Part shown: piece by piece, positions 51,365 to 57,595 of the stretch | How positions within the stretch are numbered: the stretch's first letter is position 1 | How the letters are laid out: each line of letters begins with the position of its first letter | Source: a virus | Taxonomy: Duplodnaviria > Caudoviricetes | Strand: one strand, 5' to 3' | DNA length: 64,000 bases | Virus record (IMG/VR): IMGVR_UViG_3300011008_000034 | Location: 96,001-160,000 of that record | Position numbers and translations under genes: made by a program | The notes under the pieces: generated by a model | What the model was told of the DNA's origin: nothing | Seen by the model: the letters and a program-made list of their open reading frames with translations, nothing else | Database searches by the model: none

Positions 51365-53386
51365 TTATACATTTTTTTCTATTCTTTTTCGTTCAGCATT
51401 AACATCATCTTTGTTTTGAATGTTATTATTATTTCGTTGTATTTCCTTTTTATTTCCTTCACTTGAAATTCCAGTAATTGTTCCTTTGCTATTATTTATG
51501 CATCTATAATTATTATCAAATTCTTGTTCTGTAATTACATCCTTGATTTCACCGTCACGACCCGTTATGGTTTCCGTTTTTGTTCTTTTTATTTCTGGTT
51601 CTTGAGCTTGTGATTGACGACCTTCCGTTGTTTTTGAATCTGTTGTTTCTCCTTTTGAAGGGACTTTATATTCACCTAATACTAAGTTTTTAGGGATAAT
51701 TATTGCCGCATCAATATAATTAGTCAAAACAATATTAATTTGTTCTTCTATTTGCGCAAGAGAATTTCCAAATTTTCCTTCATTTAATGCTATAATAGCA
51801 TATTTTAATTCATCAAATTGTTGTTGTATATTACTTTGTTCTAATACATCTTTAAATGCTTCTATGGTTTCATATGTTTTTAAATCTAGGTCTGATTTCC
51901 ATTTTATTTGTGTTCCAGCTTTATCTGATGTCATTGTTACGTTTGTAGCAGATGATTTTACGCCTGCGCTATTTGCTAAATTATCTGCTATATTTTTTAC
52001 ATATGTTCCGTAATCTCTTCCATCTTGTTTATTTATTTCACCATTATTTATTTCACCATTAATATTTGTAACGCCTTTATATACAAATTTTGTTCTATCA
52101 AAATCATAAATAAAGATTTCAAAATCACCAATTTTTTGTGGCGTTTCTTGAATTTGGCCATTAGGTAAACGTGTTTGTTGGACTTTATAAAATTCTCCCG
52201 TACTTTTTCCAGTTCTACGATTCCATTTTAAATTATATGTTTCTGAATCCCAAGGCTCATTAGCATTATTTGCTTCTTTTAATGCTAATGTTGTCCATTT
52301 ATCTGCTCGTTTTTCTTCATCGGATTTTTCTTGAGCAGCTTTCATTGCTGGTTGTGAAATATCTATTCCATATTCTTTTATAGCAATAGATTTTACAGTG
52401 TCTCCAGCAAGTACAGTGTATTCTTTAAAATTATTAGTATCTCGATATTTTTTTGATTCAGATACAATATCAGCCAATTGCGGACAATACCCAGTATTAA
52501 CATCATAATATGTTTTGTATAATAATAACATCTGATCAATTGCTGAGGGTTCGCCCATCATACGTCCAAATGTCAATGATAATGTCATTGTTGATTCTTT
52601 GTTTGTATTAATATTTCTTCTTATTGCAGATACATAATAAATACTTTGCGCGTCTGTTTTTTGTGCTGCGTAACTTGCTCGTAATCCTTTATACGATGAA
52701 CTAGTTCTTATTCCTCCAATAGTACCATTTAAATCACTACCAGATATTTCTTTTGAATCACTAACTGCTTCGGCTGCTTTTTCTTCAGTTCCGTTATTTG
52801 CTGAAACGTTGTCTTTTGTTTTTTCAGCACTTTGCACTTGTGCTTTATCTCCCATTACTTCTGGAGAACTATCTTTTTTATTACTTTGTTCTTCTGTTTT
52901 TACAGTTAATTTTGGAAGTTCTATATTTACCACATCTTTTCCCATTGATGAAAATGCTGAGACTATTCCTCCATTTACTGCATTTTGAGCATTTTGTAAT
53001 GATTGATAATTATGTTGATTTGACATATTTCCCCATGCAGAAGGAGCACTAGACCCATTTTCTTGAGAAGCTAATGGCTTATGAGGATGTTCATCATATG
53101 CAAAAAATCTTACAGGATTTCCAATTTTTATAGCACTATCATCTATCATACTTAATGTACCTGAATAACGTTCAGCTACAGATTTTGCACACATCATATA
53201 TCCTAATACATGCGCATTTTCTTTATTTCCCATATGAGGAATATTAAAAGTTCGTGGAGACGGACGACATCCAAAACGAATCATAGAATTAATATCAGGA
53301 AATACTCGACGAATTTTTCCCAATGGACCTGCTTGTTCATAAGGAGAATGATCTCCAATAATTTCGACTTCATACATATTGTAAAA
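51365..53386 (-). CDS. Baseplate hub/tail protein, exon 2 (LysM-like)
   Basis: In frame with exon 1 after intron removal (SDEN|FYNMYEV); YTVLAGDTVKSIA..YG LysM-like motif. Confidence 0.8.
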   Translation of the reverse strand, partial: FYNMYEVEIIGDHSPYEQAGPLGKIRRVFPDINSMIRFGCRPSPRTFNIPHMGNKENAHVLGYMMCAKSVAERYSGTLSMIDDSAIKIGNPVRFFAYDEHPHKPLASQENGSSAPSAWGNMSNQHNYQSLQNAQNAVNGGIVSAFSSMGKDVVNIELPKLTVKTEEQSNKKDSSPEVMGDKAQVQSAEKTKDNVSANNGTEEKAAEAVSDSKEISGSDLNGTIGGIRTSSSYKGLRASYAAQKTDAQSIYYVSAIRRNINTNKESTMTLSLTFGRMMGEPSAIDQMLLLYKTYYDVNTGYCPQLADIVSESKKYRDTNNFKEYTVLAGDTVKSIAIKEYGIDISQPAMKAAQEKSDEEKRADKWTTLALKEANNANEPWDSETYNLKWNRRTGKSTGEFYKVQQTRLPNGQIQETPQKIGDFEIFIYDFDRTKFVYKGVTNINGEINNGEINKQDGRDYGTYVKNIADNLANSAGVKSSATNVTMTSDKAGTQIKWKSDLDLKTYETIEAFKDVLEQSNIQQQFDELKYAIIALNEGKFGNSLAQIEEQINIVLTNYIDAAIIIPKNLVLGEYKVPSKGETTDSKTTEGRQSQAQEPEIKRTKTETITGRDGEIKDVITEQEFDNNYRCINNSKGTITGISSEGNKKEIQRNNNNIQNKDDVNAERKRIEKNV

Positions 53387-53514
53387 CTGTTATATTTAAC
53401 TAAAAGTTAAATTTGCTATTTCATCGAACCCCATTTTGTCGAAACTAATTTGGTTTGTATAGTTCTCAATAGCTTAAAGTTGTAACAACAACTCTAAAGT
53501 TAATACTTTTCTTA
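53387..53514 (-). ncRNA. Putative omegaRNA scaffold (5' boundary uncertain)
   Basis: Structured region between the tnpB stop and the intron end: GCUAUU...AAUAGC long stem, GAAC/GUUC inner stem and a terminal AUUUAACU-UUU-AGUUAAAU hairpin. Confidence 0.65.
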
Positions 53515-54669
53515 TTAAGTATTATACTTTTCTAAATTTTTAGCTGCATTTAAATCTCGATCTATTATTAATTTACAAATTGGACATTTATATATTCTAA
53601 CATTTAATTTTAAATTCTTTTTTATATGTCCACAGTTTGAACATGTTTTTGAGCTAGGATAAAATCTATCAGCTAATACAAATTCAATTCCTTCAAATTT
53701 ACATTTGTATTTTATTTGTCGCTTAAATTCATAAAATTTTTGTTCAGATATACTTTTTGCAAGATATTTATTTTTCATCATTCCTCTAACATTTAAATCT
53801 TCCATCACAATTCGTTTTGGATGTTGATTAATTAAAAACCTTGTTATTTGATGAATATAATTATTACGTATGTTAGTTTGTTTTGCACATAATCTTTGAT
53901 ATTTTTGAACTTCTTTAAAATATCTATTTGAACAACGTATTTTATTTTTTTTATTTATACGATATTTTCTAGCCAAATTTCTTTGAACATGTTTTATTTG
54001 TGATTCTAATTTTTTCATTTTTTTAGATCGATTAATATTATTAAATGCGAATTGTTTATTTCCAAAAGAAACAACAGCTAATTTTTTTACTCCAAGGTCA
54101 ATACCCATACTATCGTTATTTGCATTATTATTATTATTTACTTGGTTATCGTATTTTAATGCAAATGATAAAATCCATTTTCCATTTTTTAATGATATTC
54201 TAGGATTAATTGCGTGTAATTTAAATCTTCCCAATGGAAAATTAAATTTTGTTTTACATTTTACTTTTCCGCATTTTTCAATATTTACTAAATTTTTTGT
54301 TCGAAAATAAACATTCGTTTGACATGTAGGAAAAGATAACTTTGTTTTATGCTTACTTTTAAATTTAGGATATCCTTGATTTCCATTGAAAAAATTTTGA
54401 AATGCAAAATGCATATCGGTACATATTATTTGTAATGATGCATTGGCTATTTCTTGAAGCCAATCATGTTGACCATCATATTTTAAATTTTTTGTTATTT
54501 CCATCATGTCAAATCTTGATATATGTTTATTGTTTAATTTATATTCATTATTTTGACATTCAAGTAAATAATTATATATATACCTGCAACATCCTATATG
54601 TTTTAAAAATAATTCTTCTTGTTCTTTTGTTGGATATAACCTTATTTTATAACCTTTTATTATTGTCAC
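53515..54669 (-). CDS. tnpB: TnpB RNA-guided nuclease (intron-encoded)
   Basis: KGYKIRLYPTKEQ N-terminus, GIDLG, VMEDL, CSNC/CPIC and DRDLNAAKNL; GTG start after AGGAGG. Confidence 0.95.
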   Translation of the reverse strand: MTIIKGYKIRLYPTKEQEELFLKHIGCCRYIYNYLLECQNNEYKLNNKHISRFDMMEITKNLKYDGQHDWLQEIANASLQIICTDMHFAFQNFFNGNQGYPKFKSKHKTKLSFPTCQTNVYFRTKNLVNIEKCGKVKCKTKFNFPLGRFKLHAINPRISLKNGKWILSFALKYDNQVNNNNNANNDSMGIDLGVKKLAVVSFGNKQFAFNNINRSKKMKKLESQIKHVQRNLARKYRINKKNKIRCSNRYFKEVQKYQRLCAKQTNIRNNYIHQITRFLINQHPKRIVMEDLNVRGMMKNKYLAKSISEQKFYEFKRQIKYKCKFEGIEFVLADRFYPSSKTCSNCGHIKKNLKLNVRIYKCPICKLIIDRDLNAAKNLEKYNT

Positions 54670-54699
54670 AATTTTCACCTCCTTTATAATTAAATAAAA

Positions 54700-55105
54700 G
54701 AAATGAATAAATTTAACTACCGTTCGTTAGACGTGTTAGCTATTTTATAGCTCTCTTATTTTCATAAGAGCATAGACTATATCATTCTCACCATATCATT
54801 TCATTTTATAAAACGAAATGACTTAGGTTTTGTCCCCCACTTCCCAGTCACTTGACCAGTACGAGCATTTCAGCTACATAGTCGTTGAACCTTCCTCTTT
54901 AATAAAAGGAGGATTGGCTGCGGATTGCCCAATTCTTAATGTTTTTACCATACATGAGTAATTAATTCATCCATAATAATATCACTATTATTATTTGGTA
55001 ATTAAGACTCTAAGGGGTTTCCCGCAATTCGAGGGAATACATATAATACGTTTCCATATTATACGAACTATTTCATATTAGAAAGTCGATATCTAATATG
55101 ATTTA
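54700..55105 (-). ncRNA. Group I ribozyme core
   Basis: P at 55018-55029, Q at 54917-54926, R at 54879-54890, S at 54775-54786 and P9 at 54753-54770. Confidence 0.9.
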
Positions 55106-57595
55106 ATTTTCGTCACTTTCTTGTGTAGTAAAAGAAATAATATATTCTTGTGGAATTTCGGGAATTAATGCATCTGTTAATTCAGATAATGTACAATCAT
55201 ACCATTGACGTTTTGCACGTTCCAATTTAGCTTTTGAAATATTTTTTCCAGTATCTACATATTCATATGTTTCTTTTCCCTTTTTCTCAGCTTCTTCGGC
55301 TAATACTTTTGAAGCTGAGCTTGCATTTTCTACTGCTTTTTCATATGATGTATTAATATTTAATGCTTCGCCATTTAATTTATATAAATCATTTGGGTCA
55401 ACATCTTTAAATTTGTCAGGATTTTGTGCTATAATTTCTTTATATTTATTTCCGTCTCCCAACCATTTTTCAGCAAGACTAACTAATGTATCTCCTTGTT
55501 GTACTCTAATAGTTGTAGTATTATTTGCTAATCTATTTGCTAATCCCGCAGTATTTGCGGACCCCGATGTACCTAATCTTACGTTTTCATCTTTTGCGTT
55601 TATTCCTTGTCTTCGTGTTTGTTCATAAAAACTTTCTTGAGCAGATGCATTCATAGACTCCTTTTGAGCTTGACTCATATGAACAATTTTCTGTTTATCT
55701 GGGTCTCGAACATATAATCCATCACTACCTTTAACTTGACCTTTTTTGGGGTCTGGTACTGAATCTTTATTTGTTCCAGGTATTTTCATCATGCCATTTT
55801 TTAGCATTTCTTCATCTTTACCAATTAAATCATTTTGGATTGGAAGTTCTTCATCATGTCTAGCCCAATATCCATTAATCATGTTTTTTGTATTAATCTC
55901 TTCTGAATCCAATAATCCATCTTTTAATTGTTCATATCCCATATTATTTTTTACAAGACGATTTGCTCCAAGTGCATAATTAGGCGCTTTTAATACAATA
56001 TTTCCTTCTTCATCTGCAAAAAATTCTAATAATAAATCTTGAGCAGCGCGTTTACAAACAGATAATCTTGTTTCAGCTGAAGCGGACATAAGTTGGTCAG
56101 ATGCTGCTTGTTTGATATTAAAAGTAAAAGGTGGAAATTCAATTGGTTCTATTCTTTCTCTTAAATACCATGTTGGAATACCAGCATCTAAACATAATTG
56201 CGTTACTATTTCTACTAATCTTAATCCTGCAAAAATATTTTGCATTGTCATGCTTTTCCATGCAGCATGTAATGCACGTTCTTCTTCTTTATTAGCACTG
56301 GAAATATTTTTTTCCTTCATAATTGCTAATACTTCAAATGGATTAAAAATTTCTACAGTACCAAAATTTTTATTATCAATATTTCCCCATCTTAAGTCTA
56401 ATCCTGTATTTCCCATCGATGCACCGGCAATCATGGTAGGATTTGTAGAAACATAACTCAATTCAAGCATTTTTAATTGGTCTTGTGCTGTTATCATAAT
56501 TTGACATCCAGCATTTGCTCCTGAAGTATGTGTCTTTTTGACCGAATTAATATATCCGAAGAATATTTGATTCATTTTAAAATCATTAGTTTGTTCATCA
56601 CGTTCAAAATTTGATTTACCAAATACCCATACTTCATCCATACTTTCCCAATCACATTTTTCAGCAAACTTCCAACCAGATGTAGGACCAGGAGTATCAT
56701 CAACGTTTTTTACTTTTTCATATGCCATTGGATATTCAGTTGGAAGGTTTAACGTAACTGTTTTTCCGTTTCCGTAATCAAATGTTGCTTCAGTTGTAGT
56801 AGCTTTTTCATTATCAAATGTAGTTTTTTCAGTAATTTTTGTCGTTTTGTTAATTGCAGTAAAAGTACGATTTCCTACTTTTGTTTTAGATATATCTCCA
56901 TCTTTTGTTTCATTTGTTGCTGCAAATTTAGTTGCTCCACCTTGTTCAGTGTTACTATCAATTCTATTTTGGTCGGTTTTTGCCCCATTTCTTTGACCCA
57001 TAGAATTATTTCCATCGCGATAAATATCTGCATATCCAGGATTTTCCATTCCATTTATCATTCTATTCATAGATGGAATTCCCGTTTCAACGAATGTATC
57101 TTGTTCATAACACATTACTCTTTCTGCACCTTGAATGGTTAATGAACATGTTCCTGACGATAATATTGAAGTTGAAATAGATACATTGACAAAATTATCT
57201 ATTTTATAAGTGCGCATATAATTTCCTTTACTTGCTTTGTCTTTATCTATTTCACCAACAGACATTCTTTGATTTGCTGCATTAGCTGCATAAAATAATT
57301 TTTTTCTAATAAATACAACGTAATCTTGTTTAAAATTAACAATTTTTTTAGAACCAGCTCGTTGTTTATATTGTTCTTGTATGCCCTCTAAATGTTGAGG
57401 TTGGTCATACATTTTATATTTAGAACCTTGTAAAATATCATCACTAGCACTTAATTCAATGGTGCCAGCATCAACATTATAGCCTACTCGTTGATCGCTT
57501 TCAGGAGTAGAATAAGGGTCTTTTCCAGATTTTCCATCATTTTGATTTGTACTTTGTATAGCATTTGTTTCTTTAGTCTTATCGTTTTCTGACAT
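55106..57595 (-). CDS. Baseplate hub/tail protein, exon 1 (LysM)
   Basis: IFFGYI..V, LEFFADEEGNIVLKAP.Y hub-like motifs and VQQGDTL..LA.K.LGDG.KY.EI...N LysM; the apparent stop is the first codon of the intron. Confidence 0.8.

Follow-up and report, generated by a model that had tools for sequence, protein, structure and literature searches.

When a single transcript can serve either as a self-splicing intron or as the guide RNA of a nuclease, and both roles draw on the same nucleotides at its 3′ end, what decides which role it takes? The question is raised by an element in IMG/VR virus record IMGVR_UViG_3300011008_000034, a record of 177.6 kb estimated by CheckV to be 36% complete, of which a stretch of 64,000 nt (hereafter the window) was analysed. 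The element (53387–55105, 1719 nt, all of its features lying on the minus strand) is an IStron without tnpA, i.e. a group I intron that bears tnpB together with the cognate omegaRNA, and interrupts a large, conserved gene of the virion module in a jumbo-phage-like genome. To our knowledge IStrons are the sole case of one RNA choosing between self-splicing intron and nuclease guide, and we know of experiments on two clostridial elements only. An initial annotation of this locus proposed that mutually exclusive pairings switch the RNA between the two functions. We find that such pairings exist and are conserved in a family of related elements, and we lean towards the reading, on balance slightly probable, that two incompatible 3′-end folds, a splicing fold and a guide fold, compete on one transcript.

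The first pair of alternatives concerns a strand close to the intron's 3′ end. Just after the weak P9.2 hairpin (54721–54733; CGU-CUAACGA-ACG, read from the sequence), with its GAACG-type motif (GAACGG at 54726–54721), lies a segment termed X5 (54718–54709; AGTTAAATTT, in RNA AGUUAAAUUU) that is the reverse complement, at 10/10 Watson–Crick positions, of the segment X′ at 53414–53405 (AAATTTAACT, in RNA AAAUUUAACU). X5 would form the 5′ strand of a long-range, intron-closing helix, the ‘inverted repeat (IR) stem’ of other IStrons. The complementarity given in the initial annotation is confirmed in sequence and position, except that the hairpin which the 5′ segment follows is P9.2 and not P9.1. 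Alternatively, the 53412–53405 part of X′ (ATTTAACT in DNA) can fold back over the loop TTT onto X3 (53401–53394; AGTTAAAT in DNA), giving a stem-loop of 8 bp with a UUU loop in RNA (53394–53412; predicted free energy −4.0 kcal/mol). This stem-loop, the equivalent of stem-loop 5 (SL5) of CboIStron, is the last hairpin of the omegaRNA, as had been supposed. Because the same nucleotides are used by both, the long-range helix and the terminal hairpin exclude each other. A53414 and A53413 stay outside the local hairpin and could act as a toehold.

Both pairings recur in related elements. The family comprises 23 unique members, namely the window and 22 phage or metagenomic relatives (designated by L numbers), and all counts refer to these. 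The common layout is ribozyme, P9.2, 5′ segment, tnpB, pseudoknot 1 (PK-1) hairpin, RAGATH-18, terminal hairpin and AACGG, with P9.2 in the relatives forming a clearer hairpin with a UAGCGA-type loop. In 16/23 members a segment beginning 1–6 nt after P9.2 pairs over 7–11 bp with the terminal hairpin's 5′ strand, in a helix that takes in neighbouring nucleotides in some members and is shifted in register in L021; over the whole family the helix measures 5–11 bp, and in L042 and L101 it is displaced by a further ∼50 nt, behind an inserted hairpin. The paired strands are lineage specific, being AGUUAAAU:AUUUAACU (X3-type sequence as in the window), AAUUGGAUUU:AAAUUCAAUU, AACUAAAUUUA:UAAAUUUAGUU, AACUAAAC:GUUUAGUU, UAAACUUACU:AGUAAGUUUA and UGGAACU:AGUUCCG. 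Compared with the window, L023 shows two double compensatory changes (G-C to A-U and A-U to G-C) and one wobble, and L040 shows a G-C to C-G flip together with one pair lost on both strands. The summed length of the cognate helices exceeds that of permuted partners (P = 0.001, 13 sequence types), as it does when only the first 20 nt after P9.2 are taken (P = 0.003, seven abutting types). The covariation across homologous introns by which the pairing was originally to be judged is thus present, with complementarity of the helix strands conserved.

The terminal hairpin is kept in 23/23 members with unrelated sequences, and its predicted free energy lies between −3.1 and −6.6 kcal/mol in 21 of them. 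Each sequence type preserves the overlap between the long-range helix and the hairpin's 5′ strand, register differences included. L049 and L138 carry a long GC-rich terminal stem-loop of about −13 kcal/mol with a base, GUUC:GAAC, that is set off by a bulge; this bulge-delimited base is the exact target of the 5′ segment UGGAAC(U).

A second exclusive pair lies at the 3′ splice site itself. The initial annotation had proposed that UG after P7 (54772–54771, in J7/9) pairs as P9.0 with the CA (53389–53388) before the terminal G. The same 3′-terminal stretch (53387–53391; AACA and the terminal G53387, placed by covariation and by the junction alignment) contains the nucleotides of pseudoknot 2 (PK-2), for the loop UGUU (53487–53484) of the omegaRNA PK-1 hairpin (53479–53492; stem 5/5 paired in 21/21 members scored) pairs with AACA (53391–53388). 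The window alone among the 23 ends in AACAG, the relatives ending in AACGG (22/22); its J7/9 reads AUGC (within GUCUAUGC) against ACGC or GCGC (GUCU(A/G)CGC) in 22/22 relatives, and its PK-1 loop reads UGUU against CGUU in 20/20 relatives scored. All relatives scored accordingly have G, C and C in place of A53388, U53487 and U54772 of the window. Read from these sequences, A53388 would have two alternative partners, U53487 for the pseudoknot and U54772 for P9.0. As both partners have changed along with A53388, the P9.0 proposal is supported by a compensatory change unique to the window, and the PK-2 nucleotides are seen to double as nucleotides of 3′ splice-site recognition, position 53388 covarying with both 53487 and 54772. 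The combination CAG/UGUU/AUGC looks like a natural triple compensation at the nucleotide common to pseudoknot and P9.0 and, to judge from the alignment, shows that intron and omegaRNA are both kept under selection in the window copy.

These observations can be assembled into two competing folds. In the guide fold, AUUUAACU (53412–53405) would pair with AGUUAAAU (53401–53394) to give the terminal omegaRNA hairpin, and AACA would engage the PK-1 loop, leading to a scaffold that is competent for TnpB and linked to the guide in exon 2. In the splicing fold, the post-P9.2 segment would instead capture AAAUUUAACU (53414–53405), which would close the 1.3-kb tnpB loop and free a tail of 18 nt, within which CA would pair with UG as P9.0 and G53387 would dock as the terminal guanosine. 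One transcript would then give spliced host mRNA or guide RNA, never both. The weakness of the hairpin (about −4 kcal/mol) and the two unpaired A's at its base would allow invasion by the intron-side strand, and we infer that the long-range helix is required for splicing. Effects on protein output, including the tuning of a tail protein that was originally envisaged, might follow from such a competition. How transcripts divide between the folds probably depends mainly on intrinsic stabilities and on binding of TnpB, and not on a regulated switch.

Several observations weigh against the two competing folds. The whole 1719-nt intron, which has a GC content of 25%, contains 14 perfect inverted 10-mer pairs compared with 11.4 expected from shuffles, and since a 10-nt match is barely above chance at such a composition, the window alone is weak evidence for the helix. 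In the predicted ensemble of a 1779-nt transcript (nearest-neighbour model, secondary structure only), the local hairpin has a probability of 0.80–0.99 and the long-range helix one of ∼0.001; tertiary contacts lie outside this model, which makes the result weak evidence in turn, and the modelled preference for the hairpin agrees with published evidence of the guide fold as default. The helix is short or ambiguous in L039 (5 bp), L049 (6 bp), L021 (shifted register) and L048 (ambiguous). A matrix of RNAduplex energies failed to separate cognate from non-cognate ends because accidental GC-containing pairs dominate it, and the permutation tests on helix length given above replaced it. Finally, within the subgroup to which the window belongs X5 and X3 do not differ, so that covariation there is unable to separate RNA pairing from homogenisation of a repeat.

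From the number of inverted 10-mers and the negligible predicted probability of the long-range helix, one might take the 10-nt complementarity for a functionless chance match in AT-rich sequence. We consider this very improbable, as dinucleotide shuffles of the two end regions (48 and 44 nt) give a complement of at least 10 nt in 2% of trials, i.e. a chance probability of 0.02 for these regions alone, the position directly after P9.2 is conserved, the complementarity is specific to cognate ends across the 13 sequence types, and compensatory substitutions are found. On these sequence comparisons, a chance match is already disfavoured by the test of cognate against permuted partners.

The likeness of X5 to X3 admits another account, in which X5 is a direct repeat of X3 at the DNA level (a relic of fusion with an insertion sequence (IS), a recombinase-binding repeat, or a repeat homogenised by recombination), there is no long-range RNA helix, and the complementarity of X5 to X′ merely mirrors the hairpin of X′ with X3. 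X5 equals X3 over 7–8 nt in the window, L017, L020 and L030, and short direct repeats are found at IS607 ends. BcISt1 is stripped of its open reading frames (ORFs) by recombination between such repeats (PMC4227781). X5, however, is found 387–396 nt in from the left end, and TnpA requires minimal left and right ends of ∼60 bp or less (10.1101/2023.11.20.567912; PMC13521648); none of the 23 family members encodes TnpA. For its position, and as tnpA is missing, X5 was rejected as a repeat bound by TnpA. Where X5 and X3 differ internally, in L018, L022 and L023, the changes are A/G opposite U, by which pairing is preserved. Moreover, X5 of L103 and L145 (UAAACUUACU) is no copy of X3 (CCAAAC or CUAAAC) and pairs partly upstream of the hairpin, and L112 and L145 reach an identical 3′ region with different 5′ segments in different registers, which argues for selection on pairing and not on identity with X3. 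A repeat acting in DNA is therefore, in our judgement, an unlikely origin of X5.

It may also be that the helix is real but is a generic ORF-closing helix, its overlap with the hairpin being a by-product of compaction, in which case the RNA would divide by a fixed thermodynamic split with neither regulation nor a tuned effect on protein. We grant this a limited but appreciable likelihood. The fate of IStron RNA was reported to be set by intrinsic omegaRNA stability and not by toggling (PMC13521648), the hairpin is strongly favoured in the predicted ensemble, and the helix shifts in register and position from one relative to another, as a generic helix would. On the other hand, the overlap with the hairpin 5′ strand survives every difference in register, hairpin stability is held low in 21/23 members, and binding of TnpB represses splicing of CboIStron (10.1101/2023.11.20.567912), giving at least one trans-acting input. 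Of the switch originally proposed, the exclusive pairing of shared nucleotides stands and is conserved, whereas dynamic switching finds no support in an ensemble so dominated by the hairpin.

Other candidate pairings were tried and rejected. A partner for the hairpin 3′ strand (UAUUUAAUU, ∼54690–54680, with AGUUAAAUA, 53401–53393) is not conserved, and its region is a promoter in relatives; nor is a longer version of the long-range helix that would run on into the basal stem of RAGATH-18 (AUUUC:GAAAU) conserved; and only L017-type duplex folds showed X3 paired to P9.2 (5′ half).

The boundaries of the intron follow from the host gene. The flanking ORFs (57595–55103 and 53377–51365) are halves of one gene, as both match Bacillus phage G gp185 and PHROG 14367 at successive positions. 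Exon 1 (55106–57595, 830 codons, with U55106 as last nucleotide and 5′ splice site) matches PHROG 14367 profile positions 253–479 and gp185, and exon 2 (51365–53386) matches profile positions 654–730, both exons being delimited by ORF and homologue alignment. The gene matches only PHROG 14367, of unknown function, and the neighbouring genes form a tail module. The joined translation ...TTQESDEN/FYNMYEVEIIGD... (...QESDEN/FYNMYEV..., the slash marking the junction) is gapless across the junction against the intact homologues P0121–P0125 (1266–1513 aa), which come from contigs of up to 504 kb; the intron is thus 55105–53387, and the predicted intron-less junction reads ...GACGAAAAU/UUUUACAAUAUG.... 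This in-frame, gapless exon junction gives indirect support, at the level of sequence, to precise self-splicing at the element boundaries, in keeping with the U·G wobble that U55106 could form in P1 with G55068 of the internal guide sequence AAAUAGUU. In four DNA gut-metagenome runs (53250–55250 compared), intron-containing contig pieces span both splice sites; no contig in these runs joins 55106 to 53386, hence no intron-less allele was seen, and the contigs show no listed differences within 54709–54718 or 53394–53414.

Within these boundaries, the group I ribozyme core (54753–55084, from the 3′ side of P1 to P9) matches Rfam RF00028 with 78 bits (E = 4e-18) and is 73–78% identical over ∼150 nt to group I introns of crAss-like, Enterococcus and Bacillus phages. 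The ORF list of the window contains no ORF between X5 and tnpB (53515–54678). The latter encodes 387 aa with RuvC D/E/D motifs and zinc-finger cysteines, matches Pfam PF12323, PF01385 and PF07282 (domains HTH_OrfB_IS605, OrfB_IS605 and Cas12f1-like TNB) and PHROG 506, and aligns over its full length to PDB 8iaz (E = 3e-61) with GIDLG, EDLN, DRDLNAA and CxxC...CxxC matched. The omegaRNA scaffold core (53413–53473) matches Rfam RF03064 (RAGATH-18; 55.1 bits, E = 4e-8), and the start of exon 2 (53367–53386, ∼16–20 nt) is presumed to be the guide, following the architecture of TnpB omegaRNAs and IStrons (10.1101/2023.11.20.567912).

As to the family, the closest TnpB proteins are 51–61% identical and lie on phage-like contigs, and insertion sites of the relatives include tail-fibre, nrdD/nrdG, SPbeta-like virion and other genes. 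Extra members were gathered by a pattern scan of IMG/VR. A scan of viral_contigs based on TnpB protein found no relatives, two DNA-pattern scans of viral_contigs gave unrelated introns only or nothing, and among 11 matches from metagenome_contigs L030 alone is a true member. The compact ribozymes of L017–L023 fall below the Rfam gathering threshold and were identified via the P7/J7-9 motif. TnpB relatives from genome_contigs (L002–L014; 39–45% identity at full length) are mostly intron-less IS elements or Cbo-like IStrons and were used for the comparison of topology only.

In L017 (1905–1945) a sigma70-like promoter (TTGACA, 17 nt, TAtAAT, extended TG), with equivalents in L018–L023 and L030, is found between the strand for the long-range helix and the Shine-Dalgarno sequence of tnpB, so that tnpB and the omegaRNA could be transcribed without the ribozyme; the window has no such promoter. 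The cultured Bacillus phage vB_BceH_LBC2 has its portal gene divided by an IStron (L045; PV449003.1:3039-5954), which is unannotated, the gene being recorded as two coding sequences around a ‘transposase’; this element has a group I core (Intron_gpI, 85 bits), tnpB, RAGATH-18 and a long Cbo-like AU-rich closing helix. A HEARO RNA (IscB-type OMEGA RNA; RF02033, 114 bits) at L023:3512-3732 lies downstream of a TnpB IStron, ∼250 nt from its 3′ end, placing two different OMEGA-type RNAs side by side. In the human faecal phage contig L043 (MT837385.1), a ROOL RNA (80–677; RF03087, 271 bits) precedes by ∼220 nt a tnpB/RAGATH-18 unit that has no intron, together with two tRNA genes. Other selfish elements neighbour the IStrons of L020 (an HNH_3 gene inside nrdD) and L022 (an intein and an HNH_3 gene), sites that look like hot spots for mobile elements in phage genes.

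A trade-off between splicing and guide production is already known from IStrons, as the initial annotation had it, and the published work bears this out. Tourasse 2014 (PMC4227781) described the IS part as following P9.2 and a GAACGA-like motif, with an IR stem that encloses the ORFs and, for group B, a copy of the 5′ IR (3′ direct repeat) that is able to pair with the 3′ IR, and noted IStrons in C. botulinum phages. Zedaveinyte 2023 (10.1101/2023.11.20.567912) reported that the structure of the omegaRNA is enough by itself to repress splicing, that PK-2 and the 3′ splice site have nucleotides in common, and that splicing requires SL5. In CboIStron and CseIStron-1, SL5 and PK-2 overlap splicing determinants, and disruption of PK-1 raises splicing 7-fold (10.1101/2023.11.20.567912; PMC13521648). 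Mortman and Sternberg 2026 (PMC13521648) found that splicing is abolished when GC pairs are added to the SL5 base and that the terminal CGG is jointly constrained by excision, cleavage and splicing, and favoured fixed thermodynamic partitioning, with a role for SL5 stability, over toggling. Neither of the two latter studies names P9.0 or the IR stem as a competitor, and a text search of both for ‘P9.0’ gave no match. The class of mechanism is therefore known and the mirror-image topology is what differs here; the original interpretation, supported in part, gains structural backing from the comparative sequence data and is not novel in principle.

The window has the general IStron features, namely a 5′ group I ribozyme, an ORF enclosed by an IR stem after P9.2, and TnpB with an omegaRNA ending at the 3′ boundary of the intron. 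With group B IStrons (CboIStron, CseIStron-1, BcISt1) it shares a 5′-terminal IA2-like ribozyme, an IS part that follows P9.2 and a GAACG-type motif, the order of tnpB and a RAGATH-18-type omegaRNA sharing the intron 3′ end, the PK-1/PK-2 pseudoknot overlapping 3′ splice-site nucleotides, an SL5 overlapping splicing determinants, an AU-rich ORF-enclosing helix with a repeat from which a local stem can form as an alternative and, in its relatives, the terminal AACGG (CGG). The topology differs, in that the intron strand of the window's family takes the 5′ strand of the hairpin, 19–28 nt from the 3′ splice site, and leaves the 18-nt tail, whereas in Cbo-like L004, L008 and L045, and in the description of Tourasse (3′ direct repeat upstream of the 3′ IR), the 5′ IR pairs with the 3′-most strand abutting AACGG. 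The helix is 10 bp in the window against 15–34 bp in group B, and the 5′ exon of the window ends in U (...GAAAAU, canonical U·G) where that of group B ends in G after GG. The GG insertion, 5′ exon G and CGG terminus of group B are absent from the window, as are a serine-recombinase TnpA and an IR stem of 15–34 bp, and its CAG terminus comes with compensating changes in PK-1 and J7/9.

Group A IStrons (IS200/IS605-type, CdISt1 of Clostridioides difficile) likewise have a 5′ exon ending in U, a short IR stem (6–10 bp) and commonly TnpB-only derivatives, and the 3′ end ...CAG of the window recalls their TCAG. In the window, the flank AAAAU, the 3′ end ACAG and the short IR stem were compared with group A, of which the stem fits, whereas its relatives all end in ACGG (AACGG, as in group B); the 5′ flanks here are AAAAT, AGAAT or TAGAT and not TTGAT, ATTAT or TTTAT, and a direct repeat of the IR, as present here, has been described for group B alone. 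The 5′ exons terminate in AAAAU (window), UAGAU (L039), AGAAU (L042) and AGAAU (L145), the introns start with UA(A/G), and the P1 geometry AU/UA:UAGU is identical in these four; the shared exon end may double as the target-adjacent motif. The splice-site grammar thus resembles a mixture, group A-like at the 5′ end and group B-like at the 3′ end. Phage group I introns with homing endonucleases (Twort, SPO1, T4 td type) share a related core, insertion in a conserved phage gene and an ORF looped out by a closing helix. Here, in contrast, the ORF is an RNA-guided nuclease and its guide RNA shares nucleotides with the intron 3′ end, so that nuclease function and splicing compete on one RNA.

More tentatively, the window and its 22 relatives could be a distinct, phage-borne third lineage of IStrons, spread by RNA-guided intron homing between co-infecting phages, with the mirror-image competitor pair X5 and X3 setting the ratio of mRNA to guide, a possibility that we regard as rather doubtful at present. 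If true, this lineage would combine a canonical U·G 5′ splice site with a CGG/CAG 3′ end, without transposase and often with an internal tnpB promoter, and would spread by RNA-guided homing instead of transposition; competition between X5 and X3 for X′ would be entered via a toehold at the hairpin base, and the CAG/UGUU/AUGC change would be natural proof of one nucleotide serving pseudoknot and P9.0.

For the two competing folds, the family supplies intron-side partners for both contested omegaRNA segments, namely the post-P9.2 strand for the hairpin and J7/9 for PK-2, and natural compensatory variation backs both. This could explain why published mutants with compensatory changes in PK-1 and PK-2 continued to fail in splicing, possibly for the reason that their P9.0 partner had not been altered as well. 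In practical terms the gain is modest and lies in design rules to separate guide and intron functions in compact TnpB systems. In the window's family the last omegaRNA stem-loop shares nucleotides with an intron helix and is kept weak, and its stability may set the fate of the RNA. The presence of transposase-free IStrons in conserved virion, portal and nucleotide-metabolism genes of phages points to RNA-guided homing in phage populations.

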